Shown here: positions 1 to 64,000 of the stretch, in pieces | Position numbering within the stretch: the first letter of the stretch is position 1 | Layout: each line of letters starts with the position of its first letter | NCBI GenBank assembly: GCA_030752605.1 | Contig: JASMDX010000014.1 | Location: forward strand, 2,013-66,012 | Reading direction: 5' to 3' | DNA from: Alphaproteobacteria bacterium | Lineage (GTDB): Bacteria > Pseudomonadota > Alphaproteobacteria > GCA-2731375 | Length of the DNA stretch: 64,000 nucleotides | Notes under the pieces: model-generated | Seen by the model: only the letters and a program-made list of their open reading frames with translations | The model's database searches: none | What the model was told of the DNA's origin: nothing | Translations under genes and position numbers: made by a program

Positions 1-327
1 CAGCCCGTAACTGGCGGACGCGGCGCGATGACGGCGATCTATTATCTGCTGCGCCGGGGCGAAACCTCCGCCTGGCATCGGGTCAATGACGCGGACGAGA
101 TCTGGCATTACTACGCTGGCGCGCCGCTGGAACTGGTGCGCGGCAAGGAACGGCTGGTGCTAGGCCCGGACCTGGCGGCGGGTGAGCGGCCCCAGGCTGT
201 CATCCCCATGAGCGAATGGCAATCGGCCCATTCCTTGGGCGCGTGGACCCTGGTGGGCTGCACGGTCGGCCCGGCCTTTGACTTCGCCGGTTTCGAGATG
301 GCGCCGGAAGGCTGGCAGCCGAACTAG
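1..327 (+). CDS. Cupin-fold protein (DUF985-like), C-terminal part; 5' end lies outside the window
   Basis: ORF 28..327 shows the motifs YYLLRRGETSAWHRV and DEIWHYYAG, typical of the DUF985 cupin family. The reading frame is open back to base 1, so the true start is upstream. Confidence 0.55.
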   Translation, partial: QPVTGGRGAMTAIYYLLRRGETSAWHRVNDADEIWHYYAGAPLELVRGKERLVLGPDLAAGERPQAVIPMSEWQSAHSLGAWTLVGCTVGPAFDFAGFEMAPEGWQPN

Positions 328-1223
328 CGCAGCTTGTTCGGACGCAAAAGGTCGATGGAAGCCAGGACCGCGCCGCCGGTGATCAACAGGCAAGCCAGCG
401 CCACCGTCCAGGTCGCCGTGGCAAAGCCAAACAGGATCAACACCAAGGTCGAGAGCAACGGCGCCGCGTATGATGAGGCACCCAGGGCCTGAATATGGCC
501 GTGTTTGACGCCATGATCCCAGCAAAAGAACGCTAGACCCACGGGACCAAGGCCCAGGCCGGCAACCGCCAGCCATTGCCTGGCGTCCGCCGGCCAGACC
601 GTACTTTCAAACATCAGATGGGCCAGCAACGCCAACAGAGCCGTGGCGCCACAAAAACCGCCCACCATATCGGTGGGCACATGGCCAAGTCGCCGGGACA
701 AAACGGAATAGCCCGACCACAGGAAGGCGCAGGCCAGGGCTGCGATATGCCCTGGCGCCAGGCGTATACCGGCACTGAAATCCTGATCGCCGCCCATCAG
801 CAAGGCCGCCCCCGCCAGGCCCGTCACGGCACCCGCCAAATGCCACCAGCGCAGCCGCTCGCCCGGCAACAGAGCGGAAAACAAAACGATTAGCAGCGGC
901 CACAGATAGGCAATCAGGCTGGCTTCCACCGCCGGCGCATTGCGCAGGGCCACGAAATAGAAAAAGTGATAGCCAAACAGGCCACCCACGCCCACGGCCC
1001 AGACTAAGGGCCGGTGACGCAGATGGCGAACAATATTCTCGCCCCGCAGCAGCCATTTCAACAATGCCAGTGCAAAGGCAATACCAAAGGTCATAGCCGC
1101 CAGTTGCAGCGGCGGCACCTGGCCCGTAGCAGCGGTGAACAGGGCCAGCAGAGCCCACATCAGGACCGCGACAAAGCCGATCGAGGTTGCCCGACGCTGC
1201 CGGGCCAGCGTGGATGCCGTCAT
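324..1223 (-). CDS. DMT superfamily (EamA-like) transporter
   Basis: 300-aa ORF with about 10 hydrophobic TM segments and a duplicated EamA-like architecture. The ATG at 1221-1223 overlaps the upstream gene's stop by 1 nt. Confidence 0.75.
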   Translation of the reverse strand: MTASTLARQRRATSIGFVAVLMWALLALFTAATGQVPPLQLAAMTFGIAFALALLKWLLRGENIVRHLRHRPLVWAVGVGGLFGYHFFYFVALRNAPAVEASLIAYLWPLLIVLFSALLPGERLRWWHLAGAVTGLAGAALLMGGDQDFSAGIRLAPGHIAALACAFLWSGYSVLSRRLGHVPTDMVGGFCGATALLALLAHLMFESTVWPADARQWLAVAGLGLGPVGLAFFCWDHGVKHGHIQALGASSYAAPLLSTLVLILFGFATATWTVALACLLITGGAVLASIDLLRPNKLR

Positions 1224-1630
1224 CAATACATTTGCTGGCCGCCGTTGATGGACATGGTCGAGCCGGTGACGAAAGTCGCGCTATCAGCGATCGGGAACAT
1301 CACGGCGCGGGCGATCTCGTCGGCATGGCCCAACCGGCCCACGGGAATTTTAGCGACAATCTTTTCCGGCACATTGTCCGGCACCGCCGCCACCATATCG
1401 GTATCCACGTAGCCCGGCGCGATGGCGTTGACGGCAAGGTTATAGCGCGCGCCTTCCTGGGCCAGGGCCTTGGCAAAGCCGTGGATGCTGGTCTCTTCGG
1501 TGAATTGCACCGCGGCCTCATCATTGCCCGCATAATTGGCCGCAACGGTGTAGCCGGCCTCCTTCAAGGCTTCGCTGATCCCCCGGCCAATACCCCGGGT
1601 ACCACCGGTAACCAATGCCGCTCTGCTCAT
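1223..1630 (-). pseudogene. phaB: Acetoacetyl-CoA reductase (PhaB, SDR family) remnant with an in-frame internal deletion of about 100 aa
   Basis: The N-terminus MSRAALVTGGTRGIGRGISEALKEAGYTVAANYAGNDEAA is the PhaB NADP-binding region. The sequence then jumps from ...FTEETSI directly to HGFAKALAQEGARYNLAVNAIAPGYVDTDMVAAVP...GSTMSINGG, the PhaB C-terminus. The central Rossmann segment with the catalytic Ser/Tyr/Lys (NNAG...YSxxK) is missing. The product is 135 aa instead of about 240. Confidence 0.7.
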
Positions 1631-8191: not shown

Positions 8192-9367
8192 ATGATCCGA
8201 GATCCAAATTCAATAGAGGAATTCCTGAACAACATTCGAAAATGGGTCAGAGATGTCGCCATTCCCAACGAGGACAGGGTCGCCGAACTGCACGAAGTTC
8301 CCCAGGACCTGGTCGTGCAAATGCAGGAAATGGGTTATTTCGGATGGGGTGTTCCAGAGGAATTTGGCGGCTCGGACCTGACCACGGAAGAGCTTGTTCT
8401 AGCCGCCTTTGAGCTTTCTTACTGCGCCACCACGTTCCGGGCCTACGTCGGCTCCAACACAGGTATCGGCAGCGCGGCGCTGGTCGCCGATGGGACGCTC
8501 GAACAAAAGGCCAAATATCTGCCGGGGATCGCGACCGGTGAAATCATCGGCTGTTTCGCGCTGACCGAAGCGGACGCTGGCTCGGAAGCGACAGCGTTGA
8601 AGACCAAGGCGGTGCGTGATGGCGAGACATATGTCCTGAACGGAACGAAGAGCTTTATAACCAACGCGCCGATTTCCGATCTTTTCACTGTTTTTGCCAG
8701 AACCAATCCTGACGATCCAGGGCACGGCGGCATTAGTGCCTTCCTGGTGGAACGGGACACGCCAGGCCTTGATACGGGAAAGCCGTATAAAATGATGGGA
8801 CAGGCGGGCTCTCCGGTCTCTGAAGTATATTTCAGCGATTGTAGGGTGCCCGCCGAAAATCTATTGGGCGGACAGGAAAGCGTCGGTTTCAGGACCGCGA
8901 TGAAAGCGCTTAATAGACAACGGATACATTTGGCGGCCTTGAGCACCGGCCCGGCAATGCGGATGCTGGATGAAGCGGTCAATCATGCCATGAGCCGAAA
9001 GCAGTTTGGCCAGCCAATAGGTGGTTTTCAACTGGTCCAGGCGATGATCGCCGACAGCCAAACCGACATAGCTGCCGCCCGCGCCCTGATCCTCGAAACC
9101 GCCCGCAACCGTGACGAGGGAAAGGACATTGTGCTGAATGCCTCCATTTGCAAATATTTTGCGACCGAGATGTGCGGACGCGTGGCGGACCGAGCGGTGC
9201 AAATTTTTGGCGGTTCGGGCTACGTCGCCGACTATAGCAATATCGAGCGGTTCTACCGCGATGTGCGGCTGTTCCGGCTGTACGAGGGAACCAGCCAAAT
9301 TCATCAGCTCAATATCGCCAAGCAAACCCAACGGCGGTTTTCCAAGACAGGTACCGTTCGGACCTAG
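8192..9367 (+). CDS. Acyl-CoA dehydrogenase
   Basis: ACAD fold motifs: GCFALTEADAGS, the FITNA region and a C-terminal catalytic Glu region (YEGTSQI). Confidence 0.85.
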   Translation: MIRDPNSIEEFLNNIRKWVRDVAIPNEDRVAELHEVPQDLVVQMQEMGYFGWGVPEEFGGSDLTTEELVLAAFELSYCATTFRAYVGSNTGIGSAALVADGTLEQKAKYLPGIATGEIIGCFALTEADAGSEATALKTKAVRDGETYVLNGTKSFITNAPISDLFTVFARTNPDDPGHGGISAFLVERDTPGLDTGKPYKMMGQAGSPVSEVYFSDCRVPAENLLGGQESVGFRTAMKALNRQRIHLAALSTGPAMRMLDEAVNHAMSRKQFGQPIGGFQLVQAMIADSQTDIAAARALILETARNRDEGKDIVLNASICKYFATEMCGRVADRAVQIFGGSGYVADYSNIERFYRDVRLFRLYEGTSQIHQLNIAKQTQRRFSKTGTVRT

Positions 9368-13985: not shown

Positions 13986-14866
13986 CTAATTTTTCGCCCT
14001 GCTTTCAACCCGATGAACAATGGCGGGAACAGTGCGCAGATAGCGCGCGATAGCGTTCAAATCTTCGTCATTCAGATAGCCCAGGCCGTCGCGGATGGCC
14101 TCGGCCATGCTGCCCTGCACATCATCATAGTCGGGCTTTGTCCCATCGCGCAGCAATTGGACAATATCAGCCTCATTCAAATCGCCGATGCCGGTTCCCA
14201 GATCGGGGGTGATATTAGGCACCAGTTCCCCGTCGGGGCCATAGGAGGTGCCGGCCAAAAATCCGGATGGCTGCATCGCGCCCATGAAATTGCGCGCCGT
14301 ATGGCATTCGCCGCAATATGCTAGGGCATGCACCAAATAACCTCCACGGTTCCATGCAGCATCCCGCTCGGCCCGGTCCAGCCAGGGCCCTGGCGCAAAA
14401 AACAGCCATTTCCACAAACCAATGGTCCAGCGACAAGAAAACGGCGCGGCAACGTCATGGGCCTTGTTCGGGCGCTCGATGGGAGCCAGGGCGAACAGAT
14501 AGGCTTTGATGGCCACGGCATCTTCCGCCCGCATGGCGTTATAACTGGGGTAGGGAAAGACCGGAAAGTAGTCGCCGCCGCCCGGGCGCCGGCCATGGCG
14601 CAAGGCATCAAGAAAATCCTGTTCGCTCCACGTTCGATGCCGGTTTCAGAGTGCGGCGTGATGTTGGGACTGTAGAAAACACCGAACGGCGTCTTCAGGC
14701 CGCGGCCACCCGCCAAGGGCGCACCGCCGCCCTTGGTATCCGTATGGCAACCCACACAGCCCGCCGCCCGGATCAGGTATGCGCCGCGCGCGACCTTATC
14801 ATCCGCAGCGGCGCCAGTGATGCCGAAACCGAGTAATATAACTATAACCACACCGAATCGGCTCAT
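13986..14866 (-). pseudogene. Dihaem cytochrome c (class I), disrupted by a -1 frameshift
   Basis: The signal peptide and first haem site CVGCH...FGVFYSPNITPHSETGI lie in one frame (ORF 14321..14866). The continuation WSEQDFLDALRHGRRPGG...YCGECH (second haem site) lies in the -1 frame (ORF 13986..14603). The junction is at about 14615-14625 (plus coordinates). Confidence 0.7.
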
Positions 14867-15239
14867 TGGCGCAGGTCCACCTTGACTTCCCGCCCGCCAA
14901 AGCCATGCACCTTGTCATGGACCCGCAGGCGCACACGTACCTTAGTCTCGCCTATGGCGATGCCGGAGAGGGAGCGCGTAAAGGGTTTTTCATGCCCATG
15001 GGGATGGCCTAATACCCGCTTACCCATCACCTTGTTATTCGGCCCAACGACCTCCCACGCATCAGCATAATGTTCCAGCCTCCGTCATCGTGACGCACGG
15101 TGACGGCAAAACTATAGACGTCGGGGCCGCTTTTCGTCACTTTCACCCCGACAACGTCAGCAGGGCCCGCCAGCGCGGTTTGGCCCACGGTTAGAATGAC
15201 CAGCAATCTCGGTAAGGCGCGAAGGATCGAATTCATCAT
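14863..15239 (-). pseudogene. Small exported His-rich protein, -1 frameshift; translationally coupled (ATGA) to the cytochrome c gene
   Basis: Signal peptide MMNSILRALPRLLVILTVGQTALAGP, then DVVGVKVTKSGPDVYSFAVTVRHDDGGWN. The sequence continues in the +1 frame as HYADAWEVVGPNNKVMGKRVLGHPHGHEKPF...VKVDLRQ. One C appears to be missing at about 15071-15074 (AACCAT read as AACAT). Confidence 0.5.
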
Positions 15240-35498: not shown

Positions 35499-36392
35499 TC
35501 AGAATACAGAGCCCCACATCCGACTATACCAGGGTTCCTCTATCCCGTCGGTCCGCTCGTCCTCGCCAGTCAGCAAGGCATAGCTGTCCAGATACCATTC
35601 ACTGCCCGGATAGTTATAGCCCAGGATGGCGGCGGCGTTCTTGGCCTCATCCACAATGCCCAGGGACAAATAGGCCTCGGTCAGACGATGTAGGGCCTCG
35701 GGGACGTGGGACGTGGTCTGGTATTTGTCGACGACATAGCGAAAACGGTTAATCGCCGCGCCTTGGTGGCCACGCTTCAGGTAATAGCGGCCAATCTCCA
35801 TTTCCTTGCCAGCCAAATGGTCGCGGGCCAGATCCATCTTCAGGCGGGAATCGCGGGCATATTCGCTTTCAGGATAACGGTCTATAACTTCGCCCAAGGC
35901 GTCGAGGGCTAGCTCAGTGATTTTCTGTTCCCGGCCGGTATCGGCGATTTGTTCGTAGTACGAGATGGCAATCAGATAATAGGCATAAGGGGCGTCGCGG
36001 TTGCCGGGATGCAACTGCAAAAAGCGCTGCGCGGCAAAAATCGCCTCGTCATAATTATTGATTTCGTACTGCGCATAGGCCGCCATCAACTGCGATTTCC
36101 GGGCCCAAACCGAATAGGGATGTTGACGTTCCACCTCGTCAAAATCCATCACGGCCAATTCCGCGTTGCCGGAAAGCAGCTTGTCCATGGCCTGGTTGTA
36201 GATCTCTTCCACTGGCCGTTCCACATAGACGGCTTCATCGCTGGCGCAGGCGGTCAACAAGAATACCAGTGCCAGGCCAAGCACGGCGGCAAGGCCTGAA
36301 CGTTGCGAGCTAAATCGCGGATTTTGAGGCCGCCGGTGGCAATTCATTACGTTTAACATATATACAGAACTGTTTCCGAATTTTCCATTCAT
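35499..36392 (-). CDS. bamD: Outer membrane protein assembly factor BamD (TPR lipoprotein)
   Basis: LTAC lipobox and TPR repeats. The conserved gene order bamD-recN-ligA supports the call. The start could be an internal Met (MLNVMN or MNCHRR). Confidence 0.8.
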   Translation of the reverse strand: MNGKFGNSSVYMLNVMNCHRRPQNPRFSSQRSGLAAVLGLALVFLLTACASDEAVYVERPVEEIYNQAMDKLLSGNAELAVMDFDEVERQHPYSVWARKSQLMAAYAQYEINNYDEAIFAAQRFLQLHPGNRDAPYAYYLIAISYYEQIADTGREQKITELALDALGEVIDRYPESEYARDSRLKMDLARDHLAGKEMEIGRYYLKRGHQGAAINRFRYVVDKYQTTSHVPEALHRLTEAYLSLGIVDEAKNAAAILGYNYPGSEWYLDSYALLTGEDERTDGIEEPWYSRMWGSVF

Positions 36393-39335: not shown

Positions 39336-39860
39336 ATGGAAATTCGGCCCGTCAGCGATGATGACATGGCCGCGATCCAAACGATCTATGCCCAGCATGT
39401 CCTGCACGGCCTGGCATCCTGGGAATTGCAGCCGCCCGGCATCACCGAACTAACCGCGCGGCGCGATACCTTGCTCGGTAGTGGATATCCCTTCGTGGCC
39501 GCCACGGTTGGCGGTGAACTGGTTGGCTATGCCTCCGCCAGGCCATACCGGACGCGGCCCGCCTATCGCTTCACGGTTGAGAACACGATTTACCTGCATC
39601 CCGACCGCCCCGGCCAAGGCATTGCCCAGCCGTTGCTGCAACGGGTGATCGACGACTGCACCTCCCGGGGCTATCGGCAGATGATCGCAGTGGTCGGCGA
39701 CAGCGGTAACTAGCTCTCCATCCGCTTTCACGAAAAAATGGGCTTCCGCCAAGTCGGGCTGATTGGAAGTATCGGCTGGAAGTCCGGGCGCTGGCTAGAT
39801 TCGGTTATTCTGCAACGGCCCTTGGGCGACGGCGCCGGTACCCCACCATCGGAATTGTAG
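39336..39860 (+). pseudogene. GNAT family N-acetyltransferase interrupted by an in-frame TAG
   Basis: MEIRPVSDDDMAAIQTIY...IAVVGDSGN, then TAG at 39711-39713, then LSIRFHEKMGFRQVGL... in the same frame to the stop at 39858-39860. The acetyl-CoA motif region is intact around the stop. Confidence 0.65.
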
Positions 39861-43304: not shown

Positions 43305-44348
43305 ATGAGCAAGAACGAGCAAATCAAAGGCGAAAGGCAGGCCTATTACGACCGCATCACGCCGTCCAATCTGACACCGTTGTGGGAGGTCTTCGCCGAT
43401 CTGGTAACGCCGGAGCCAAAGGTTCAGGCGGCCGCGGCGATCTGGCATTACGACGATATCCGCTCCTTCATTCTGGAATCGGGGGGCTTGATCACGGCCA
43501 AGGAAGCCGTGCGCCGGGTGCTGATCCTGGAAAACCCCAATCTTCGCGGCCAATCCAAGATCACCAATACGCTGTATGCGGGCCTGCAACTGATTCTGCC
43601 TGATGAAGTCGCCCCGGCCCATCGCCACAGCCAATCCGCGCTGCGTTTTATTGTCGAAGGTACAGGCGCCTATACGGCGGTCGAGGGTGAGAAAACCATC
43701 ATGCGGCCTGGCGATTTCGTCACCACGCCGTCCTGGGCCTGGCACGACCATGGCAATGACAGCAACGAACCCATGGTCTGGCTGGACGGCCTGGATATTC
43801 CCATCATCAATTTCTTTGACACCTCGTTCGCCGAAGAACTGGACCAGGACAGCCAGTCGCTGTCACGCCCTCCCGGCGACAGCCAGGCCCGTTATGGCGC
43901 GGGTCTGTTGCCCATGGGCTATGAAAACGTTTCGCCGACCTCGCCAGTTTTCAATTATCCTTACGAGCGCACCCGCGAGGCCTTGGAACAGATGCGCAAG
44001 GCAGAGGAATGGGACCCCTGTCATGGCCTGAAAATGCGCTACGTCAATCCCGTTACCGGTGACTATGCCATGCCGACCATGGCGACCTTCATGCAGCTGA
44101 TCCCCGCCGGCCTAGCCACCGCGCCCTATAAATCCACTGACGGCATGGTCTACAGCGTAGCCGAAGGCACGGGCAAGACATATGCCAACGGCCAGGAACT
44201 ATCCTGGGGCCCACGCGATACTTTTGTCATTCCCAGCTGGTGTGCACACCATCATGTGGTCGATGGAGACGCGGTGCTGTTCAGTTTTTCAGACCGTCCG
44301 ATCCAAGAAAAACTTGGCCTTTGGCGGCAAGACCGCGGCAATCACTAG
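43305..44348 (+). CDS. Gentisate 1,2-dioxygenase (bicupin)
   Basis: 347-aa bicupin with the His triad region HRHSQSALRFIVEG...WHDHGN. Confidence 0.85.
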   Translation: MSKNEQIKGERQAYYDRITPSNLTPLWEVFADLVTPEPKVQAAAAIWHYDDIRSFILESGGLITAKEAVRRVLILENPNLRGQSKITNTLYAGLQLILPDEVAPAHRHSQSALRFIVEGTGAYTAVEGEKTIMRPGDFVTTPSWAWHDHGNDSNEPMVWLDGLDIPIINFFDTSFAEELDQDSQSLSRPPGDSQARYGAGLLPMGYENVSPTSPVFNYPYERTREALEQMRKAEEWDPCHGLKMRYVNPVTGDYAMPTMATFMQLIPAGLATAPYKSTDGMVYSVAEGTGKTYANGQELSWGPRDTFVIPSWCAHHHVVDGDAVLFSFSDRPIQEKLGLWRQDRGNH

Positions 44349-46500: not shown

Positions 46501-46602
46501 ATTTCAAGCCAGTCCCACGGCAAGACGGATTAAACCACTGCGGTTGCCTCGTTCAAGGCACGGCACATTCCAGGCACTGGCGATTTCTACTTTGCTGTGT
46601 GA

Positions 46603-47132
46603 ATGACAACGCAAATCACCAACCCCGAGCTCTTTATACTCCGCCGGCTGAAAATTCCGGACGCCGCGGACTATCGGGCGCTGCGGCTGGAAGACTTAAG
46701 AATCAATCCGGAAGCATTCGGCGCCTCCTTCGAGGATAAAGCAGACAAGCCGTTGCAATGGTTCGAGGAACGCCTAAAAAATGGCATAATTTTCGGCGGC
46801 TTCACCAAGGATAGCCAATTGGCTAGAGCAGCCGGTTTGCTGGTGCTAAGCACCGTGAAACTGGCGCACAAGGCCATGCTTCGGGGCGTATTCGTAGGCC
46901 AGAAGTCCGCCGACAAGGTTTGGCAGGATCGTTGGCGACGCGCGCCATTGTCCAAGCTAAAAGCATTGTCGAGGAGGTCACGCTAACGGTCCTTGCCTCC
47001 AACAAAACAGCCATCAGATTGTATGAAGATCTTGGATTCGAGGTCTATGGCCTGGAACGGCGGGCCTTGAAAGTTGGTTACGACTACCACGATCAATTGC
47101 TGATAGCGCTATCGTTGATAGAGCGCGGATAG
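46603..47132 (+). pseudogene. GNAT family N-acetyltransferase disrupted by a -1 frameshift
   Basis: The N-terminal part reaches ...AMLRGVFVG in one frame (ORF 46603..46986). The continuation PEVRRQGLAGSLATRAIVQAKSIVEEVTLTVLASNKTAIRLYEDLGFEV (acetyl-CoA binding) runs in the next frame (ORF 46920..47132). One base is missing in a G/C run at about 46898. Confidence 0.65.
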
Positions 47133-47281
47133 AACCACCGCCCACCACTGAAATTAGTATCGGTTATCCGTCGTCTAGGAGCCTGTCGCAGCCAATCTAA
47201 CCCATTTGACCGTCCCTCCAGAGCCCGTGGGCAGGTGCATAGCACCGCCAAATGAATCAGATTAGCCGCGACATAGCAGTG

Positions 47282-51646: not shown

Positions 51647-52255
51647 ATGGGACAACTAACCTTGCAATTGTTCGATGATATTCACACCGAGGAATGCCGC
51701 GCATTCGCCTGTGCTTGGCAGGCTTGGCGCGGCACTGATGTGGCTCCAAAACAGTCTAGCGTGCACATCGAGGACATAGCGAGAGAATTGCATCAGGTTT
51801 CGGTGATCGAGGTGATATCACCGGAAATCGCTAGATTCCGCCTTGCCGGCACCACCCTGTCCCAGGCCATGGGCATCGAGTTGACCGGTCTCAACTATTT
51901 TGATCTCACGACCCCCGAAGGACGTGGCCCCCGGCTGGCACGCACGCTGAATTTGGTCGCGCAGCCTTGCGGGTCGCATTTCGTCTTTCCCATCGCCTAT
52001 AGCTCGGGGTGAACCGTGCAATCGGAAATCGTGTCCCTTTCCGTACAGCCCGATGATCCGTCGTCGCCACCGAAGATCTTCGGCATTGCCACAGCATTGG
52101 AGGAAACAACCTTCGATCAACCGATAGCGCGGCCAAACCAATTGCCCCTGCCCGGAGGCTTCCAATTCATAGATATCGGCGCCGGCGTTCCCACGACGAA
52201 TCTGCAACTGGCGGAACGGCCGACCGCATCCCTATCGCTCAAACAGGCGAGTTAG
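51647..52255 (+). pseudogene. PAS-like (DUF1457/PAS_5) domain protein with an in-frame TGA
   Basis: ORFs 51647..52012 and 52016..52255 lie in the same frame and are separated only by a TGA at 52013-52015 (GGG TGA ACC). Their combined length of 202 aa matches full-length DUF1457 proteins. TGG (Trp) changed to TGA is the simplest explanation. Confidence 0.5.
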
Positions 52256-52261: not shown

Positions 52262-54601
52262 TCAGCCGCGTTTGCGGCGAAATTTTGTAGCCCGTGTACC
52301 GGCACGGCCACCGCTGGAACGGCCCTTGGGGCCGCGGGCGGCCTCCAGCATCTCGGGCGTTATCTCGGTCGCAACCTCTTTCGGAACATAACCCTCGCCG
52401 CGCTTACGCCGGGCCGCCGCGATACCAGGTGCCGCGCCGTCCTTGGAACGGCCCTCAGGGTTACCATCGCCCCTGCGCTGCGTCTCACCCTCGCCGGTCA
52501 AGCCCTTCAACTCCATTTCCTCCAAACGGCGCAACTCGTCCCGCAAGCGCGCAGCATCCTCGAATTCCAAATTAGCGGCTGCGGCGCGCATGCGCTTTTC
52601 TAGATCTTCCATATAGTTCATCAGGTTATGGCCGATCAGATTATTGCGCTCATCATCCCCCGTACCCACGGTGATATGATCACCCTCGTAGACAGACTCC
52701 AAAATATCGGCGATGTTCTTCTTCACGGATTCCGGCGTGATGCCATTGGCCTCGTTGTAGGCCATCTGTTTTTCACGCCGGCGCTCGGTCTCCTCCAATG
52801 CCTGATCGAGACTTTGCGTACGCTTGTCCGCATACAGGATGACCCGGCCATCCACATTTCGCGCCGCCCGCCCAATGGTCTGCACCAACGATGTGGCGGA
52901 GCGCAAAAAGCCCTCCTTGTCCGCATCCAGGATCGCCACCAGAGCGCATTCGGGAATGTCCAGGCCCTCGCGCAGCAGGTTGATGCCGACCAGAATATCG
53001 AACACGCCCAGCCGTAGATCGCGGATGATCTCGATCCGTTCCAGAGTATCAATATCGGAATGCATATAACGCACCTTCAGGCCTGCTTCGTGCATGTACT
53101 CGGTCAGGTCCTCGGCCATGCGCTTGGTCAGGGTGGTGACCAGAACCCGGCCTCCGGCGCCGGTGACATCCCGGCATTCGGCGATTAGGTCATCCACCTG
53201 ATGTTCCACGGGGCGGATGATGCAGGTCGGATCAATCAGGCCCGTGGGGCGGATCACCTGTTCGGTGAAGACGCCGTCGGTGCGTTCCAATTCCCATTTG
53301 CCGGGCGTGGCGGAAATAAACATGCTTTGCGGCCGCATCACCTCCCACTCGGCGAACTTCAAGGGTCGATTGTCGACGCAGGAAGGCAGGCGGAAGCCGA
53401 ATTCGGATAGGGTCCATTTGCGCCGATAGTCGCCTCGAAACATACCGCCCAGTTGAGGCACGGTGACGTGGCTTTCATCCAGGACGATCAGGGCATTGTC
53501 GGGCAGATACTCAAACAAGGTTGGTGGCGGATCACCAGGATTGCGCCCGGTCAGATAGCGGGAATAGTTCTCGATGCCAGGGCAAAAGCCGGCGGCATCC
53601 ATCATTTCCAGATCCAGCATAATGCGCTGTTCAAGGCGCTCCGCCTCCAACAGCATGCCGGCTTGGCGCAGGAATTCCAAACGCTCCAGCAACTCCGCCT
53701 TGATGCCCTTCATGGCCTGCTGCAAGGTTGGGCGTGGCGTAACGTAATGGCTGTTGGCGTACACCTTGACCTTTTCGAACGTCGTGGCCCGCTGCCCGGT
53801 CAGGGGGTCGAACTCAACAATCTCCTCCAACTCATCACCGAACAAAACGAAACGCCAGGCCTGATCTTCCATATGGGCCGGCCACAATTCGACCACATCG
53901 CCACGCACCCGGAAGGTACCCCGGCCAAAGAAATTGTCGTTGCGGCGGTATTGCAGATCCACGAAGCCTTTCAGCAACGCATTGCGGTCCACGGTAGCGC
54001 CTACCTTCAGATCCATGGTCATCTTGGAATAGGTCTCAACCGAGCCGATACCGTAGATGCAAGAGACAGAGGCCACGATGATGACGTCGTCGCGCTCCAA
54101 CAGGGCGCGGGTGGCGGCGTGGCGCATGCGGTCGATCTGCTGATTTATATGCGCCTCTTTCTCGATATAGGTATCAGTGCGGGGCACATAGGCCTCCGGC
54201 TGGTAATAGTCATAGTAGGAGACGAAATATTCCACCGCATTGTTGGGGAAAAAGCCTTTCATCTCGCCATAAAGCTGCGCGGCTAGGGTCTTGTTGGGCG
54301 CCAGCACCAGGGCCGGGCGCTGGGTCCGTTGAATAACCTGAGCCACGGTGTAGGTTTTGCCGGACCCGGTGACCCCCAACAGTACCTGGTTCTGCTCCCC
54401 CGCCTCAACGCCAGCCACCAGCTCGGCGATGGCTTGAGGTTGATCGCCCGCCGGCTCGTACTCCGAGACCAGTTCAAAGGCGTGCCCGCCCTCACCTTTC
54501 TCGGGCCGCTCAATGGGCGCGGGCACCCAAGTGGCCTGCTCCGCCTCGGCCAGGGACTGCTCGAAACTGCCCCGGATCTGTTTCATGGATGTATGTGCCA
54601 T
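52262..54601 (-). CDS. uvrB: Excinuclease ABC subunit B
   Basis: Helicase motifs GVTGSGKT and DESH, a UVR domain and an extended Gly/Arg-rich C-terminal tail; 779 aa. Confidence 0.97.
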
Positions 54602-55797: not shown

Positions 55798-56500
55798 ATG
55801 CGGTGGATTGTGCCTCTTTTTTGTCTGTTGGCCAGCATTGGCCTATCGCCCGCCACACATGCGCTTGAAAACATCGTTACCGACTTCAATAAATCGGCAC
55901 GAGACATGCGGGTCGTTTACCCACGGGTAATTCTTGATCAAGTGATGGCACTGATGACGAAACAGTTCGGTGCCTACTAAATTCAACCCTTTGGCCAGGC
56001 GCTTTCACGCAAACGCGCGTTGGATGAATTGCAGGCGGGCCGGATAATCGTGTTCGAGGCACCAACGCAAAGGACATGGGAAGAAAGCACCATTCCCATC
56101 GGCATCCGCATTCGCGAAGGGCTCTTGAGTTATAAAATCACCGAGGACAGGCTTGGCATTTTGGCGGCTAGGCTCACCGCGTCCAACAAACCAGCCGGCA
56201 AGACAAGGGCACCAAAGCAACTTACCGCCAAGCCGAAAAAATATTCTGGGGCATTCAGATCGGCGCCTACAACCCAGGGTAGGGACGAAAGGATCCTGGG
56301 ACGAATTCATCGTCAACCCGTTGGCGATTGAATTGACAGAGGCCACGGTTCACTACGTTCCCACCAAGCCGAACAAAAAGGGCAAAACATTAACGCTGAT
56401 CGTCGTCAACGAATATTCCGACCACAAAGCCGCCAATAAAGCCTACGACGACCTAAAGGAAAACGGCCTCGACTGTGTCGCCATCCTCGTTAGACCCTGA
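55798..56500 (+). pseudogene. Hypothetical secreted protein disrupted by an in-frame TAA and a frameshift
   Basis: A signal peptide MRWIVPLFCLLASIGLSPATHA begins ORF 55798..55980. The same frame continues after the TAA at 55981-55983 to 56331. The C-terminal part (...VHYVPTKPNKKGKTLTLIVVNEYSDHKAANKAYDDLKENGLDCVAILVRP) lies in another frame, 56153..56500. The local GC content is lower than in the surrounding sequence. Confidence 0.4.
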
Positions 56501-56582: not shown

Positions 56583-58319
56583 ATGCGCAGGACGCGGCTC
56601 AGCTTTGGCGAACGCCTGATCGCTATTCTCAAACAGGAAGGCGTCGAGGTAATATTCTCTCAGGGCGACCTTTCTATGAAGGATATCCAACTGCATGCCG
56701 AGGCCCAGGGCCTGAAGGTTGTCGGCCCTCGCCACGAGGCCTCCGCCATTTTCATGGCCATGGGCTATCACGCCATGACCGGCAAGGTTCAAGTCGCCAT
56801 TGGCGCGCCGGGCCCGGGCCAGGCCAATTTGCTGCCCGCCGCCATTACCGCCGCCCAGGAACATATTCCCGTCATTATCTTTGGTGCCCGCCGCCAGCAC
56901 GCGGTCGATACCGCAGTACGACGTGGCCGCTGGCTGTATGCCTCCCTGCTGCCCAACTTCAAGGAGGTCTGCAAATTCGCCGCCAAGCTGGAACAGCTTA
57001 GCCATCTCGATGAAGTGGTGCATGAGGCCTTCCGCCAAGCATTGAGCGGCACGCCGGGGCCGGTCTATATCGAATATGACGCTGAGCTTAACGAGAGGTC
57101 AGCCGATTTCCCCAGCCTCCCATCGCCCAGCCGCTACCGTGCGCCGGCGCAACCGGCACCGGCGGGGGCGATTGAAGATGCCCACCGAATGCTGCGAGCG
57201 GCGCGCGCTCCCATATTGCTGGCCGGCGCAGGGGTGCAGCGTTCGCGGGCCCAGGGCGCCTTTGTTAAATTGGCGCATAGGCTGAAATGCCCCGTGCTAA
57301 CAACCTTGGGCGGTGCCGGCGCCTTTCCAGAGACCGAGGCGCAATGGCTGCGTTATATGGGCCAGGCGGGCGGCAAAGCTATCGCGGCAGCGGATTTGCT
57401 GTTGGTGGTCGGAACGTGTTTGCCGGAAACCGCGAACTATGGCCGCCTGCAAAACTTCGCGGCCAATGACGAAGGCCGGCAGGTCATCCTGATCGAACCC
57501 GATGCCGCCGCCGTCGGGGTCAATCGCCCCATCGACCTGGCGCTTATCGGACAGATTGATCTGGTGCTGGCGCAGTTGCTCGAGACGGTGGGCGACGGCG
57601 CCGCGTTCCCGGAACATGCCGAGCTTGAAAAATGGCGCAAGTCCTCGAAGGCAGAGGATAAGGCGTTGATGGATAACCTGCCGCGCTCCAACCGTTTGCA
57701 TCCCGGGCATTTGATGATCGAGGCGCGCAAGGCGGTGCCCGAGGAAGCGGTCATTGTCGTCGATGGCGGGCTGACCATGCTCTATCAATATGCCTTCTTC
57801 GAAAAGCAATCCGCCGAGTTCATTTATACCGCCAATTTCGGCCATCTCGGCTCCGGCATGGGGCTGGCGATTGGGGCCCAGCTGGCGGCACAATCAGATA
57901 CCGGGCGGGCCCAGCCGGTTTGCCTGATCTCCGGCGACGGCGCCCTGGGTTTTCACATCATGGATTTCGAAACCGCCGTGCGCCACAGCCTGCCCATCGT
58001 CATCGTCCTCAACGACGATCAGGCGCTGGGTGCGGAAATGGCCCAGCACATGCAGCATATCGGCCACGAAATCCAGGTCACCTTCAGCCCGGTCAACTAC
58101 GCGGCAATGGCCGAGGCGATGGGCGGCATTGGCATCCGGGTGGAACGGCGCGAGGATATCGCGGCGGCCGTCAAAGAGGCGTTTACGCAGGCAGCCGCGC
58201 GGAACAAGCCGGCGATCGTACAGGTCCCCACCGATCAGGATGCTTCCTACACATATCCGGTGCCCTATGTCGGCGAACTCGCGGGCTGGAAGGGGGCGGA
58301 TGTTCTGGCGCGGATTTAG
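56583..58319 (+). CDS. Thiamine-pyrophosphate enzyme of the acetolactate-synthase-like family (sulfoacetaldehyde acetyltransferase/Xsc-like?)
   Basis: Three-domain ALS-like architecture with the TPP motif ISGDGALGFH...VLNDD. A strong GGAGGAG Shine-Dalgarno sequence precedes the ATG at 56583. It is in an operon with the ComA-family gene (49-bp gap). Confidence 0.8.
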   Translation: MRRTRLSFGERLIAILKQEGVEVIFSQGDLSMKDIQLHAEAQGLKVVGPRHEASAIFMAMGYHAMTGKVQVAIGAPGPGQANLLPAAITAAQEHIPVIIFGARRQHAVDTAVRRGRWLYASLLPNFKEVCKFAAKLEQLSHLDEVVHEAFRQALSGTPGPVYIEYDAELNERSADFPSLPSPSRYRAPAQPAPAGAIEDAHRMLRAARAPILLAGAGVQRSRAQGAFVKLAHRLKCPVLTTLGGAGAFPETEAQWLRYMGQAGGKAIAAADLLLVVGTCLPETANYGRLQNFAANDEGRQVILIEPDAAAVGVNRPIDLALIGQIDLVLAQLLETVGDGAAFPEHAELEKWRKSSKAEDKALMDNLPRSNRLHPGHLMIEARKAVPEEAVIVVDGGLTMLYQYAFFEKQSAEFIYTANFGHLGSGMGLAIGAQLAAQSDTGRAQPVCLISGDGALGFHIMDFETAVRHSLPIVIVLNDDQALGAEMAQHMQHIGHEIQVTFSPVNYAAMAEAMGGIGIRVERREDIAAAVKEAFTQAAARNKPAIVQVPTDQDASYTYPVPYVGELAGWKGADVLARI

Positions 58320-58368
58320 AGCGGCTTTTCCATTAGTATTACCTTGCAGCTTAGCCGAAAGATGAGCC

Positions 58369-59166
58369 ATGCCAACAACACCAGCCTTTCCCTTTATTTC
58401 CCTTGATCCGCGCCGAAGCCTAAAAAAACCACGCGCCGCCGGCCTGACCATGGTCTCCGACTACCAACTCGGCATGATCGCACTACAAGATCTGCTTGAT
58501 GTTGGCGGCGACTATATGGACATTTTTAAGGTAGCGACGGGCACCGCACGGCTGTTCGAACGCGGCCATCTAATCGCGAAGCTGGAGCTTCTTGGCCACC
58601 ATTCCGTACGTTCCTTGCTGGGTGGGCAATTCCAGGAATATGTCCTCCATACCATGGGGATGGATGCCTTTCCCCGGCATCTGGAAGAGGCCAGCGCGGT
58701 CGGTTTCGATCTGATCGAAATATCCGACAATGTGGTTGATCTGGGGCCCGGCACCCGGGAACGGCTGTTCGATGCCGTCCGCGCCGCCGGCCTGACACCG
58801 GTGGGCGAGATCGGCGACAAACGCGAACATTCGGCCGCGCAAGCCATCGTAGCCGAAGTGCAAGAGGTGCTCGGCCTCGGTGCCGAACTGGCCTTGATCG
58901 AGGGGGCCGAGTTGATGCTCGATGGCCAGCCCAATGAGGATCTGATCCTGACCCTGAAGCGTGAGGTCGAAATAGACCGCTGCATGTTCGAGCTGGCCAC
59001 GCCGAGGGTCGGTAGCACGGCGCCACAGATTTACGCAGCCAAGAAATTTTTGATCAAAACCTTTGGCCCGGACGTCAATCTGGGAAACGTAACCCCGGAT
59101 GTGGTGATCGAAACGGAAACCACCCGCTTGGGCCTTGGCTCTGCCGGACCGCTTGACCTGATGTGA
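58369..59166 (+). CDS. (2R)-phospho-3-sulfolactate synthase (ComA) family protein
   Basis: N-terminal PRRSLKKPRAAGLTMVSD, VATGTARL and a 265-aa length match the ComA/PF02679 family. Confidence 0.65.
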   Translation: MPTTPAFPFISLDPRRSLKKPRAAGLTMVSDYQLGMIALQDLLDVGGDYMDIFKVATGTARLFERGHLIAKLELLGHHSVRSLLGGQFQEYVLHTMGMDAFPRHLEEASAVGFDLIEISDNVVDLGPGTRERLFDAVRAAGLTPVGEIGDKREHSAAQAIVAEVQEVLGLGAELALIEGAELMLDGQPNEDLILTLKREVEIDRCMFELATPRVGSTAPQIYAAKKFLIKTFGPDVNLGNVTPDVVIETETTRLGLGSAGPLDLM

Positions 59167-59188
59167 CCGCGAATTGCCCGGAAATGCG

Positions 59189-60046
59189 CTAAATATCGAA
59201 ATGCATGACTGGCTCGAACAGCCCGGCCTTGAAGATCAGCACACGGAAGGTGAAAAAACCCGCCAGCACGCCGACCGCACCCACGGCCTGGCTTGTTGGC
59301 GCGCCGCCGCCCAGCCACAACGCCGCGAAAGGCAGCAGGATACCCGCCGCCAATACCACACCATGGAACCATTTGGCGTAAAGCGTCCTGATCAGCAACT
59401 CCGCTGACAGCTTGCCGCCAGGCGCCCCATGATAAGCGCCGTACAGAAGGCCAAGAAGCATCATCAAATCCGCCAGTAACAATCCCATCGCCAGATAGCT
59501 CAACTGGGTTGCCAGTCCGCCCCCCGCCAACGGCAGCGTCAGAACGACACCGCCGGTCAGACCATAAAGCAAAGAGGAAATAGGCATCATTGCCGTGTTC
59601 CAAAGGGCAACTGCACTGGACTGAGACATCGCGAAACCTTGATAGGTCATCACGATCAATGCCGAAGCTCCAGCCAGCCATGGCAACAGACCGCCCAACG
59701 GCACAGCGCCAGCCGTCATGACATTTATCGTGTGCAAGATACCTGCACCCATAAAAACAATGGTCGCGATCAAACCGCGGCTGGTCCAGGAGCGGTCAGG
59801 GCGCAAAATGGCGCGCCAGGATTTTCCCGGCACGCCCATGTGGGTCAAATGAAAGAATGGCTTGCCGATACCCTTGATTAGCAAGCCGAGGATCATGCCC
59901 GGCACCACGCCACAAAGCATCGAGACAAGAAACAGTCCCGCACCCAGTTCGCCGCAGAAGAAAGCGGCCGCCATTGCCGCACCCCAATGCCGCTGGGCGC
60001 GGCAGCCCAAACGAAAATTGTCGCCAACCATTTCAGCTTTTTGCAT
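59189..60046 (-). CDS. NrfD/PsrC-type membrane anchor subunit of a molybdoenzyme (SoeC-like)
   Basis: 285 aa with about 8 TM segments in an NrfD-like pattern. Last gene of the A-B-C operon. Confidence 0.7.
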   Translation of the reverse strand: MQKAEMVGDNFRLGCRAQRHWGAAMAAAFFCGELGAGLFLVSMLCGVVPGMILGLLIKGIGKPFFHLTHMGVPGKSWRAILRPDRSWTSRGLIATIVFMGAGILHTINVMTAGAVPLGGLLPWLAGASALIVMTYQGFAMSQSSAVALWNTAMMPISSLLYGLTGGVVLTLPLAGGGLATQLSYLAMGLLLADLMMLLGLLYGAYHGAPGGKLSAELLIRTLYAKWFHGVVLAAGILLPFAALWLGGGAPTSQAVGAVGVLAGFFTFRVLIFKAGLFEPVMHFDI

Positions 60047-60049
60047 GGG

Positions 60050-60673
60050 TTAATCCACGTAGTAGACGCTGGGTTGGGTGTTCTTCTCGGGCATCGGCGT
60101 GCGGCCGTTGCGCCGGCGGATCAGTTTACTGGCCTTGCTATCGGGATCGCTCCGGTCGCCAAAGATCCGCGCTTCGGTGGGGCAGCTGACAACGCAGGCG
60201 GGCTGCAGCCCGCGATCAACGCGAGCGCTGCAGAAATCGCACTTGGCCACCGTACCGGTCTGCCAGCGCTCGTCCCGGTCCGCCTCAAAAGCCTGTCTGT
60301 TACCTTCGCCGAAATAGCTCTTTTGCAGGATTGCCTTGGTTAGCTGCGTTCGGTTGTCGTAGGGGCAGGCGACAGCGCAGGCGTTACAGCCGATGCATTT
60401 CTCCTGATCGACCATCACGATGCCGTCGTCCCGTGTATGGGTGGCATCGGAAGGGCAGGCCTTCTCACAGGGCGCATCCTCGCAATGATTACACAAAGTG
60501 GGGATATAGTGGCGCCGAACATTGGGAAAGGAACCCACTTCGGTGACAAAGGTGCGGGTGAAGAAAACATCCTCCGGCAGGCTGTTTTCCGTCTTGCAGG
60601 CGACAACGCAGGCATTGCAGCCAATGCAACGGTTCAGATCGAACACCATGCCCCATTTTGTCATGACCGGCAC
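60050..60673 (-). CDS. Four-cluster [4Fe-4S] ferredoxin subunit (DmsB/NarH/SoeB-like)
   Basis: Four CxxCxxCxxxCP motifs; 207 aa. Confidence 0.85.
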   Translation of the reverse strand: MPVMTKWGMVFDLNRCIGCNACVVACKTENSLPEDVFFTRTFVTEVGSFPNVRRHYIPTLCNHCEDAPCEKACPSDATHTRDDGIVMVDQEKCIGCNACAVACPYDNRTQLTKAILQKSYFGEGNRQAFEADRDERWQTGTVAKCDFCSARVDRGLQPACVVSCPTEARIFGDRSDPDSKASKLIRRRNGRTPMPEKNTQPSVYYVD

Positions 60674-60676
60674 ACC

Positions 60677-63244
60677 CTAACTTTCCACCTTTTGGATTTT
60701 CACCTTACCGATGGTTTCCATGGTGCCCCCCAGCATGCCGGTGTGGGCCAGATCAATGGCAAGATGGGCGTTCTGGCTGATGCCGATGCCGTCAGCCACG
60801 GGATGATGGCTGCCCCGGCCAAAGCCGCCCGAGATGGCCGCTGTTTGGGGATGGATGCCCTCGGACAGGCCGACAACACCCTTGGCTTTGGCATGGCGCG
60901 ATTCAACCCAAACGGCATCGCCTTCCTTCAGCGATCTGGCCTTGGCGGTGGTGGCATTGATCACCACCTTGATTAGCTGCGGATCCCGTTTCGCCACATC
61001 CATGAGGATCGGATTGGTCGCCGTATCGGCATAGGTGGTCATGGCGGATTTGTAGGAGATGACATAGAAGTCGAACTCCGCATCTACCGCATGAACGGGA
61101 CTGGCCTCCCAAAACGGCACTCCCTTGTAGACATCGGTACGGATTCGCAGCCCGTGCTTCTTCTCTATCTCGTGGCGGGCCAGGTTTTCCTTCAACTCAT
61201 CGCCGACCGTCTTGATATAGTTAAAGAACAGCGGCAGCCTGGCATCTCCATATATGCAGTATTTCTGATCCGGCTTGAGAGGCTGGAAATCATTGCCATA
61301 TCGCTGGTACCAGGCAAGATCCTTGCTGCCCTGGGAATGGCATTTGGCCTGAATATCCAGAACCTCGTCGTGGCGGTATTTGCGTTTGAGGTCCAATTCG
61401 AAAGGCGGTGACAGACCCAAAGTCCGGTTCAGGGCCGCATTGAAGCCGTTCGGGCCGAACAGGAAATCCGCCCGTTCCGCCAGCTCAATCAGGATATCCA
61501 TACCATCCATGGTGTCATGCAGCGGCGGCACCACCGGCTGCGCCACCTGCAGGCCCACCCTGTCGTGGCTCCAATTAATGAAATTGTAGCGCTCCAGGTA
61601 GGTATGTTCAGGCAAGACCACGTCGGCGAAATCGGTCGCTTCATCAAGGTAGATATTGATGGAGACCACGAGATCGAGTTTCTTCAGAGCCCTCGCGACG
61701 ACGCTGCCATCACCGCTATTGGTGAACGGGTTGGAATGATAGATCACCAGCGCCTCGGGCGCGTAGTCAAAGCCGAAGTTCTCCGGATTGAGTGTCGTCC
61801 ACGGCACCAAATGCCCCATGTCGCAGGCCAGCGGGCCGTAGTCCCGCAATTCCAGGCTCTTCGGCGGATAGGAAAACGGCGTATAGAGATGCCAGCCGGT
61901 GGAATGAGGCTGGATCATGCCGTCTTCGCCCTTGGCCAGCATGCGCGGTCCGCCGCCAAAACGCCGCGCGTCCATGCTTTTGGGCAGCTGGCCGCCGGGC
62001 ACGCCGAGGGCACCGACCAGCATTAGGACCGTTTCCTGGGCCAACATGGCATTGGCCCCGTTGGTATGCGCCTGCAGGCCGCGATAGGACAGCATGGATA
62101 CGGGCCGGTAGGGGTATTCGACGCCATCGATAACGATGGTCTGGCCGATACAGGCGGCGGCGGCGAATTCCTCGGTGATGCGCCGGATCGTGGCCGCCGG
62201 AATATCGCAAATGCCCTCCGCCCACTCCGGCGTATAGCTTGTCGTTTCATCCTTCAGGTACTGGAACGCCGGCACGCATTCGACGCCATCGACGACGTAG
62301 CTGCCCTCAAGGCTGTAATCGCCAATAGAGCCGTCCTCAAAGGACTTCGCAACACCCGCCGCCGCGTCCCAGACCAGCGGTTTGCCAGTTGCCGGATCGG
62401 TCACGAAATTCCTTTCGGGGTCCAGCAGATAAGGCGCATTGGTACCCTTCTTTAGCCACTCGGCATCATAGATTCCGTATTCGTGCAGCAGCAGATAAAT
62501 CATCGCCAGCAGCAGAGCCAGATCCGTGGCTGGCTTGATCGGCAGCCAGTCATCGGCCTTACTGGCGGCCACGGAGAGGCGGGGATCGGCGACCACCAGC
62601 TTTAGTCCCCGCTCCCGCGCCTCGGCCAGTTCACGCGCGATCCTGACCGATGACTGATAGGCCCCAAAGCCGTATTCCGAGCCCAGCAGGATCAGATAAT
62701 TGCAGTATTCCAGATCGGGGAATTCGACCAAGGCGCCGTGGGTGATCATGCCGACGAAATGATTGGGGTTGGCGCATTGGTTGGAGACGCCGCTAAAACA
62801 AAAACCGTTGTTCGTGGTACCGTAGGCCGCGCCCCAGGCAATGGATTGGATATATTTTTCATACGGCCACAGGGAACAGATCAACTTGTTCGGATTTTCC
62901 TGGCGGATCGTCCGCAATTTATCCCCGACCAGATCGAGCGCTTCCTCCCAACTTGCCTCGCGCCACTTGGGATCGATATTCCTGCCCTTTTCAGGGTTGG
63001 TGCGGATCAGCGGCGTCTTTACCCGGTATGGATCGTAGTACTTAGAGACCCCGGATAAGCCCCGCGCGCACAGATGGCCCAATGTATTGGGATCGTCGGC
63101 ATCGCCTCTGATCCGGACCGGATTGCCGTCCTTGACCTGGACAACGATGCCACAGGCATTGAAGCACTGCTGACAATGGCTCTTGATCCATATCTCAGCC
63201 GGCGTCTCCGAAACTTCGGCACCAGCTGCATTTTGAGCTTCCAT
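60677..63244 (-). CDS. Molybdopterin (bis-MGD) oxidoreductase catalytic subunit without a Tat signal (SoeA-like sulfite dehydrogenase candidate)
   Basis: N-terminal FeS motif CQQCFNACGIVV...C, no twin-arginine signal peptide and an 855-aa length. It is followed by the FeS and NrfD subunits in the order A-B-C. Confidence 0.8.
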   Translation of the reverse strand: MEAQNAAGAEVSETPAEIWIKSHCQQCFNACGIVVQVKDGNPVRIRGDADDPNTLGHLCARGLSGVSKYYDPYRVKTPLIRTNPEKGRNIDPKWREASWEEALDLVGDKLRTIRQENPNKLICSLWPYEKYIQSIAWGAAYGTTNNGFCFSGVSNQCANPNHFVGMITHGALVEFPDLEYCNYLILLGSEYGFGAYQSSVRIARELAEARERGLKLVVADPRLSVAASKADDWLPIKPATDLALLLAMIYLLLHEYGIYDAEWLKKGTNAPYLLDPERNFVTDPATGKPLVWDAAAGVAKSFEDGSIGDYSLEGSYVVDGVECVPAFQYLKDETTSYTPEWAEGICDIPAATIRRITEEFAAAACIGQTIVIDGVEYPYRPVSMLSYRGLQAHTNGANAMLAQETVLMLVGALGVPGGQLPKSMDARRFGGGPRMLAKGEDGMIQPHSTGWHLYTPFSYPPKSLELRDYGPLACDMGHLVPWTTLNPENFGFDYAPEALVIYHSNPFTNSGDGSVVARALKKLDLVVSINIYLDEATDFADVVLPEHTYLERYNFINWSHDRVGLQVAQPVVPPLHDTMDGMDILIELAERADFLFGPNGFNAALNRTLGLSPPFELDLKRKYRHDEVLDIQAKCHSQGSKDLAWYQRYGNDFQPLKPDQKYCIYGDARLPLFFNYIKTVGDELKENLARHEIEKKHGLRIRTDVYKGVPFWEASPVHAVDAEFDFYVISYKSAMTTYADTATNPILMDVAKRDPQLIKVVINATTAKARSLKEGDAVWVESRHAKAKGVVGLSEGIHPQTAAISGGFGRGSHHPVADGIGISQNAHLAIDLAHTGMLGGTMETIGKVKIQKVES

Positions 63245-63386
63245 CTTCCGCTACCACATATGATTTGGCGGTAACGATAGCATAACGCTTCGTCCGAGGC
63301 GTGCTTTTGCATACATTGCCGCCGCACTAGCTTGCTATCGTAATGTGGTATCATGCCGACGTGCGGCATCGAAAAAGGATTGAAGC

Positions 63387-64000
63387 ATGACCACAGTGGG
63401 AGACGACACGACCGAGACCCCGGAAACGGTTCTGGCCAAGCTGGAAGCCCTGCGGGCCAAACGGGGCTACCTACTGCCGCATCACGGGTTGATGGCCGTG
63501 GGCGAGCCTGATCTGCTGGCTGCCTATGACCAGATGTACACTACGTTGACCCTGGGTACGCGGATATTGGACGAGCGCAGCAAGGAAATCATTTGGCTGG
63601 TCATTTTGACCACCACGTCGGAGGCCATCGCCACCCATCATATCCAGCGCATGCATGAGGCTGGCGGGACCGATGGGGAAATCGAAACGGCGGTACGCCT
63701 GGCCGCCTATGCCCGGGGCGCTGATTATTTCACTTTCGTGCGTCAACACTGGGCCCCGCACCTAGCGGACTATGACGCCGTCAGGGCCTATCGCGACGGT
63801 CTGGACGCTCTAGTGGCCGGTAGCGGCATTGAACCGGGCTGCGTGGAAATGGCCTTGGCCGCGGCCCATGCCTGCCAGCGGCGCTGGGAATGGGTCGATG
63901 AACACATTATAGGCGCCTACCGCGAAGGCATCGTCGAGCGCGCCTTGCTGGAAGCGTTTAGCCTGATGATGTTCCCCGGCAGTATACCCAATTTCGTCGA
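63387..64000 (+). CDS. Carboxymuconolactone decarboxylase/AhpD-like family protein (3' end outside the window)
   Basis: ATG at 63387 with an AAAAAGGA Shine-Dalgarno sequence. Two CMD-like halves are present; no stop codon occurs before the window ends. Confidence 0.55.
   Translation, partial: MTTVGDDTTETPETVLAKLEALRAKRGYLLPHHGLMAVGEPDLLAAYDQMYTTLTLGTRILDERSKEIIWLVILTTTSEAIATHHIQRMHEAGGTDGEIETAVRLAAYARGADYFTFVRQHWAPHLADYDAVRAYRDGLDALVAGSGIEPGCVEMALAAAHACQRRWEWVDEHIIGAYREGIVERALLEAFSLMMFPGSIPNFV

Follow-up and report, generated by a model that had tools for sequence, protein, structure and literature searches.

Decay of accessory genes at seven loci in a 64-kb genome segment of an uncultured marine alphaproteobacterium

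Results

Eight interrupted genes in the window

This report concerns a set of interrupted genes in a 64-kb stretch of contig JASMDX010000014.1 (assembly GCA_030752605.1), hereafter the window, in whose positions all coordinates are given. The window has a GC content of about 0.595, about 60 genes and a high coding density; tRNA and Rfam scans of it found nothing. Disrupted genes number 8 of about 60 (roughly 12-13%) and lie at seven loci, where they are read as probable pseudogenes or remnants:

1223..1630, minus strand: remnant of phaB (acetoacetyl-CoA reductase), 135 codons; in-frame deletion of 315 bp, joined at about 1488-1490
13986..14866, minus strand: dihaem cytochrome c pseudogene, 293 aa if intact; 1-bp G deletion at 14630/14631 and GGA>GAA at 14634
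14863..15236, minus strand: small exported protein pseudogene, 125 aa if intact; GGG to GG at about 15072-15076
39336..39860, plus strand: GNAT1 pseudogene (ArsN1 / phosphinothricin-acetyltransferase-like); CAG>TAG nonsense at 39711-39713
46603..47132, plus strand: GNAT2 pseudogene; frame switch within GGCC (46897-46900), as a 1-bp deletion would give
51647..52255, plus strand: PAS_5 pseudogene; CGA>TGA nonsense at 52010-52012
55798..56137, plus strand: SBP_bac_3-like periplasmic protein, 5' remnant (signal peptide and about 113 codons); TAA at 55978-55980, 3' two-thirds lost
56138..56500, plus strand: SPOR-domain lipoprotein, 3' remnant (about 120 codons); 5' ~176 codons deleted, two frameshifts

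The initial annotation, made from the sequence alone, had claimed seven lesions, and all are present at the positions it gave or a few bases away. Its in-frame phaB deletion of roughly 300 bp measures 315 bp when aligned to 240-aa orthologues. The -1 frameshifts that it placed at about 14620 in the cytochrome c gene and at about 15072 in the small exported protein gene correspond to a G lost at 14630/14631 and to GGG reduced to GG at about 15075, and that of GNAT2, placed at about 46898, falls inside GGCC 46897-46900. The TAG of GNAT1 stands at 39711, with Pfam and NCBIfam domains running past it, and the in-frame TGA of the PAS gene, given as 52013, occupies 52010-52012. At 55798-56500, described as one secreted hypothetical protein with a stop and a frameshift, a revision is needed: the lesions stand (a TAA and two frameshifts), whereas the single gene is replaced by two fused remnants.

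The host is an uncultured marine alphaproteobacterium of the genus GCA-2731375, of oxygen-deficient waters. A contig of GCA_002731375.1 (L009; contigs used for comparison are cited by L numbers) is 99.9% identical to the window across 20.9 kb, and the GTDB genus GCA-2731375 is named after that assembly number. Zhang et al. describe the genus as an alphaproteobacterial ("Rhodospirillaceae") denitrifier from metagenomes of oxygen-deficient zones (ODZ) (PMC10359470). The nearest other species in a UvrB search are uncultured metagenome-assembled genomes (MAGs), whose isolate names indicate Saanich Inlet, the Arabian Sea, the Black Sea and deep water. By exact-protein look-up, genes of the window occur across many publicly available metagenome assemblies and MAGs, with 87 collection blocks listing AlaS and 178 listing the shortened PAS product.

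Recurrence of the lesions in other assemblies

Six-frame reading combined with Pfam and NCBIfam profiles revealed that the domains of the interrupted genes continue across each stop or frameshift, and full-length homologues align through the lesions. An intact orthologue in the same gene order is found in sister lineages for phaB, the dihaem cytochrome c, the small exported protein, PAS_5 and the SPOR lipoprotein. The comparison with close strains that the initial annotation had proposed was run on 25 same-species contigs from varied BioSamples, studies and assemblers. These match the window at 99.78-100% identity, every lesion that they cover is carried, and no indels occur at the lesions; of 121 distinct single-nucleotide polymorphism (SNP) alleles among them, none restores a frame, and neither does any indel. 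Because the same lesions recur in 25 contigs and no SNP is frame-restoring, assembly or sequencing error is excluded for practical purposes.

The notion that homopolymer miscalls or a chimeric consensus created the lesions accordingly retains hardly any probability. It can draw on the three or four indels that sit in short runs (GG, GGG, GGCC, A6), and on the fallibility of MAG consensus sequences, of which L009 is an example with its Ns and adjoining 1-bp insertion. The affected runs, however, are merely 2-6 bases long, and the lesions are identical, without indel differences, in about 25 contigs across samples, studies and assemblers. Sequencing or assembly error does not take the form of substitutions, of a 315-bp deletion mediated by repeats or of a deletion that fuses genes. 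Furthermore, the remnants show additional evolutionary divergence, and the cytochrome c gene has been assembled as both an intact and a broken allele.

Two irregularities of the comparison set lie outside the lesions. L009 has scattered Ns at window 36076-36078 and 44208-44276 and a 1-bp insertion beside an N inside bamD, which is probably a consensus-quality problem of that MAG and not a real lesion. An apparent 348-bp deletion of recN in L010 is a scaffold gap of Ns, with no lesion.

phaB

In frame, phaB lacks exactly 105 codons (315 bp), those for residues 48-152 in orthologues of 240 aa. With them went NNAG, the catalytic Ser and YAAAK, so that the catalytic Ser, Tyr and Lys are all deleted. 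Against TIGR01829 the remnant gives two matching stretches and 154 bits, with a cut-off of 302. Intact orthologues in L129-131 keep the gene order PhaR, PhaC-like, PhaB, YddG, Cupin_5, MgtE. In intact phaB, two CCGGCAT copies (7-bp direct repeats) bound the segment that is deleted in the window, a signature of slippage or illegitimate recombination.

Short forms with identical boundaries occur at 84-86% identity. Three phaB remnants differ from intact P0138 at 10-19 of 132 sites, while four closely related intact orthologues show 3-7 differences pairwise, and the remnant has thus evolved several times faster than its intact orthologues. Its later substitutions include changes at positions invariant in all aligned intact orthologues, two Leu>Pro among them. 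Judged from these alignments, the phaB remnant is an old pseudogene evolving without constraint.

Dihaem cytochrome c and its small exported partner

The cytochrome c lesion reads CGGTGG>CGTGG, a G lost from a GG dinucleotide with a neighbouring substitution alongside, and the frameshift throws the second haem-binding domain out of frame. The stop codon of the small exported protein overlaps the cytochrome c start, and this four-base overlap of the two frames suggests translational coupling. Both genes are intact (293 aa and 125 aa) in L138, from a lineage 96.4% identical to the window, and in the more distant L128. The only indels between the window and L138 within these genes are two losses of a single G in the window, at 14631 and at about 15072-15076; both deletions postdate the split from the L138 lineage.

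Among the cluster members listed, the cytochrome occurs as a 205-aa truncated product on about 80 contigs and as the intact 293-aa form on three short contigs. L127, one of these three, matches the window at 1055 of 1059 positions and keeps the frame; thus, an intact cytochrome c allele still occurs in nature.

All four differences between L127 and the window (14597-14634) are confined to 45 bp amid 1059 otherwise identical bases; separate point changes seem a less likely source than a recombination patch or a complex mutation.

The two GNAT genes

At the GNAT1 stop, most aligned full-length homologues carry Gln and the rest His. The stop cuts off the C-terminal 48 residues, and with them roughly 12 positions at the end of the Pfam GNAT domain. 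Intact homologues exist at 85-87% identity. A variant at 94% identity has the same stop, and a variant at 89% identity, from a sister lineage, has a different lesion, an independent frameshift, a case of convergent loss.

The Pfam GNAT domain of GNAT2 is spread over both reading frames. GNAT2 lies in a 780-bp segment (46501-47281) with a GC content of 0.54 that is missing in five related species, where 14-154 bp stand in its place. From this setting, GNAT2 is probably a failed acquisition.

PAS_5

The stop in PAS_5 occupies a position that is Arg in all aligned relatives, and full-length genes are present in eight related species. The 80 codons past the stop are still conserved, and identity to L020 is 72% over the entire length. 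Beside uvrB, L021, L024 and L029 have two tandem PAS_5 paralogues, compared with one in the window and in L020. One L024 copy has an in-frame stop (FADA*QGW), and decay of the PAS_5 family is therefore not confined to the window's species.

Fused remnants at 55798-56500

The SBP-like family has proteins of ~300 aa, and the best match of the 5' remnant, P0377 at 46% identity, aligns across the stop. The intact orthologue of the SPOR lipoprotein has 301 aa (L020 3971-4876); the frameshifts in its remnant lie in an A6 run at about 56240 and at about 56278. A reading of the whole interval as a single secreted SPOR protein was dropped when an exhaustive representative search put the N-terminal part in the SBP-like family. 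A deletion joined the two remnants, and at this locus L020 and L030 have 3.3-3.9 kb of extra DNA with an endonuclease/phosphatase gene and a mutase-like gene.

Housekeeping genes and stop codons

AlaS, LigA, RecN, UvrB, Icd, Gor and SoeA all have their full length and a complete set of domains, in agreement with the initial annotation. That annotation had further put these named genes at more than 20 kb and argued that random errors would have hit them several times. Their actual total is 13,968 bp, and seven length-proportional random hits would miss all of them with P = 0.14, which is not significant; the length argument thus fails on its own terms. The probability that seven such hits all fall within genes of 900 bp or less is P = 0.002. 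The decisive evidence for decay is the comparative data, not these statistics.

The 53 intact genes terminate with TAG (23), TAA (16) and TGA (14). TAG is therefore the commonest stop in the intact genes of a window of about 60% GC, an unusual preference, as at such a GC content TGA is normally the dominant stop and TAG is rare. Recoding of TGA or TAG is excluded by this terminator use together with the sense codons, without a shift, in orthologues. Phase variation at the G runs is rejected by inference, as runs of 2-3 bases make it implausible.

Terminator use also bears on whether the interrupted genes still function, through programmed frameshifting, read-through, recoding or truncated products that serve as new short proteins. 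The frame of the phaB remnant is open and a short form with the same boundaries persists in variants 84-86% identical, and the PAS and GNAT1 fragments keep part of their domains. Yet at these sites the frame of the orthologues is unshifted and the codons are ordinary ones for Arg, Gln or Gly, and TAG and TGA are normal terminators in this genome. PhaB has lost its catalytic Ser, Tyr and Lys and has substitutions at invariant positions, including the two Leu>Pro changes, and the GNAT1 stop removes 48 C-terminal residues. On balance we consider retained function very improbable. Six-frame reading of the larger intergenic gaps (29.8-30.4, 36.3-36.7, 39.7-40.1 and 40.3-40.9 kb) gave no further remnants.

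Population variation and ages of the lesions

SNPs in intact coding sequence of the compared contigs comprise 47 synonymous and 45 nonsynonymous changes. Assuming about 74% of coding sites to be nonsynonymous, pN/pS is estimated at about 0.34, an unremarkable value for very close strains. SNP density per kb is 1.7 in intact coding sequence, 2.6 in pseudogene DNA (11 SNPs) and 2.9 in intergenic DNA; a rough estimate for synonymous sites, assuming that they make up about 26% of coding sites, is about 3.4/kb. In L012, the most divergent strain (99.78% identity), 10 of 44 SNPs fall inside the GNAT2 and SPOR remnants. The pattern agrees with neutral evolution of the remnants; the numbers are small. 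Relaxed constraint is clear for phaB; the remaining remnants, GNAT1 convergence aside, hold too few substitutions.

The phaB deletion and the GNAT1 stop are common to more divergent variants, whereas the cytochrome c lesion is still polymorphic; the lesions accordingly differ in age. This matters for the proposal that they stem from a past mutator (mismatch-repair-deficient) episode or from adaptation to laboratory culture. C>T transitions and 1-bp deletions in short runs form a spectrum enriched by mismatch-repair defects, but the same spectrum is the normal spontaneous one in GC-rich bacteria. In addition, uvrB, recN and ligA are intact, pN/pS is unremarkable, and a single mutator burst does not fit clearly different lesion ages. 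The laboratory-adapted strain suggested by the initial annotation does not fit either, since the organism is known only from environmental metagenomes and laboratory adaptation is not applicable. We therefore judge this proposal improbable as an explanation, while a mutator contribution to the lesions may exist.

Among the SNPs that distinguish L012/L132 from the window are two dense clusters: 8 in about 100 bp (58381-58482), at the beginning of the ComA-like gene or upstream of it, and 5 in about 135 bp inside uvrB (54002-54137). They suggest small recombination tracts between strains.

Flanks and pseudogene density

Gene order is collinear with relatives save for insertions and deletions. 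The genes called in the window and its flanks include no transposase or integrase domains, and no insertion sequence (IS) elements were seen. A 2.4-kb stretch of a sister species (L129 14782-17240) is deleted in the window's species (L135 13968-14035), some 3 kb upstream of where the window starts. Gone with it are genes for an aminotransferase and an alpha/beta hydrolase and, at the start of a SnoaL_4 gene, ~13 codons; this last gene is called at 128 aa in the window's species instead of 159 aa.

The density of disrupted genes has to be read with the fact that the window was flagged after the fact. A purely local decay, in which a normal background of pseudogenes is by chance concentrated in such a window and no genome-wide reduction is under way, is a serious possibility to which we give somewhat less than an even chance. 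Pseudogenes typically make up 1-5% of gene-like sequences in prokaryotes (PMC522871), and seven loci in 60 genes is just a few-fold higher. IS elements are missing, coding density is high outside the remnants, and 20 kb of flanks contain no clear split gene. On the other side, the lesions are spread along the whole 64 kb and form no single island, and several kilobase-scale losses of gene content relative to sister species are seen in and beside the window. Population diversity is also very low, which favours fixation of slightly deleterious changes.

Other features of the window and its surroundings

An organosulfonate/sulfite module at 56583-63244 is intact, with genes for an Xsc-like thiamine pyrophosphate (TPP) enzyme, ComA (phosphosulfolactate synthase-like) and a SoeABC-type sulfite dehydrogenase. 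Past window position 64000, at a distance of 3-10 kb (L132 1-7000), lies a multihaem cytochrome cluster with genes of 594, 536 and 315 aa that give weak matches to MtrC/MtrF-like, Cytochrome_C554 and paired-CXXCH families. The same stretch encodes a 564-aa Fer4/cNMP-binding protein and has one 620-bp gap, in which the sole open reading frame is 31 aa.

The segment 8150-9400 looks strain-variable. The exact protein of its acyl-CoA dehydrogenase gene (8192-9367) is on 8 contigs, compared with about 90-180 collection blocks for its neighbours, and a metagenome scan with this protein returned one close relative, on a short contig. SNPs bunch at both borders, at 8132-8212 in L017 and at 9361-9399 in L002. 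Here the sister species (L128, L129) have a 423-aa gene, a luciferase-like gene and a CoxLSM-like molybdenum hydroxylase cluster.

Discussion

We conclude with high confidence that the eight dispensable genes at seven loci are genuine pseudogenes that arose by ordinary spontaneous mutation in a natural lineage. One deletion occurred between 7-bp direct repeats, three single bases were lost from short runs of G or G/C, two C>T transitions created nonsense codons, and a larger deletion fused two genes, whose remnants also hold a stop and two frameshifts. The relaxed selection on accessory genes that the initial annotation had proposed is borne out as decay of dispensable genes by the recurring lesions, the intact orthologues in sister lineages and the faster phaB remnant. 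In the course of events that we envisage, the genes became dispensable, and drift or hitch-hiking fixed their lesions in a population with very little diversity (99.8-100% identity). The cytochrome c and small exported protein genes, as a coupled pair, probably decayed together after loss of their pathway, and the remnants would remain because deletion of dead DNA is slow.

Several points weigh against this conclusion. GNAT2 and the SBP-like remnant are without an orthologue at related loci, and that they were once intact is concluded from family profiles only. Many of the compared assemblies come from a few related eastern tropical North Pacific (ETNP) sampling campaigns, and the populations are not fully independent. 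Decay is shown for the 64 kb of the window and hinted at by the 20 kb of flanks sampled, in which the 2.4-kb deletion was seen but no gene that is clearly split. Lastly, the 121-aa PAS and 137-aa GNAT1 fragments and the open 135-codon phaB frame may have residual function.

A broader proposal is that the species is a recently bottlenecked, near-clonal, pelagic ODZ denitrifier in genome-wide reductive evolution, with around 10% pseudogenes and kilobase deletions. We hold this to be speculative and rather unlikely. If true, it would offer a rare natural snapshot of drift-driven early genome reduction outside known host association or, alternatively, a hint of unrecognised particle or host association. 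Should the pseudogene load hold genome-wide, the organism would be a useful natural case for drift-driven gene loss in a planktonic bacterium as opposed to selective streamlining; should it not, the window is an ordinary example of gene decay. Under genuine decay as concluded above, the loci should be annotated as pseudogenes and not "corrected", and metabolic reconstructions of this ODZ denitrifier should treat PhaB, the dihaem cytochrome c and its partner, two GNATs, PAS_5 and the SPOR lipoprotein as not functional.

Like ordinary bacterial pseudogenes (Liu et al. 2004, PMC522871; Kuo & Ochman 2010, PMC2916853), those of the window are disabled but recognisable genes, with nonsense, frameshift and deletion lesions concentrated in accessory functions. 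GNAT2, in a lineage-specific insert of lower GC, resembles pseudogenes that derive from failed transfer. The window differs in density, roughly 12-13% against the usual 1-5%, and, unlike young Salmonella pseudogenes, which are rapidly removed, the phaB remnant at least persists across variants only 84-86% identical.

The window organism shares with streamlined SAR11 and Prochlorococcus that it is a marine planktonic lineage losing accessory genes. Streamlined genomes of that kind have very few pseudogenes and short spacers. In the window, by contrast, dead genes are kept in a state in which they can still be recognised, and this favours drift over selection for economy.

Bacteria that recently became restricted to a host, such as Mycobacterium leprae (PMC3061063), Sodalis, Salmonella Typhi and Shigella, exemplify reductive genome evolution. 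Common to these and the window are many pseudogenes of mixed age, kilobase deletions relative to sisters, a near-clonal population and intact housekeeping genes. Unlike them, the window is without IS elements or rearrangements and its coding density is otherwise high; its GC content of about 0.60 is normal, and broad metabolism has been kept. Its organism comes from pelagic ODZ metagenomes with no known host, and the comparison is on 64 kb only. Gene decay of this sort is well known; what is mildly unusual here is only how dense it is locally and that the natural population is near-clonal.

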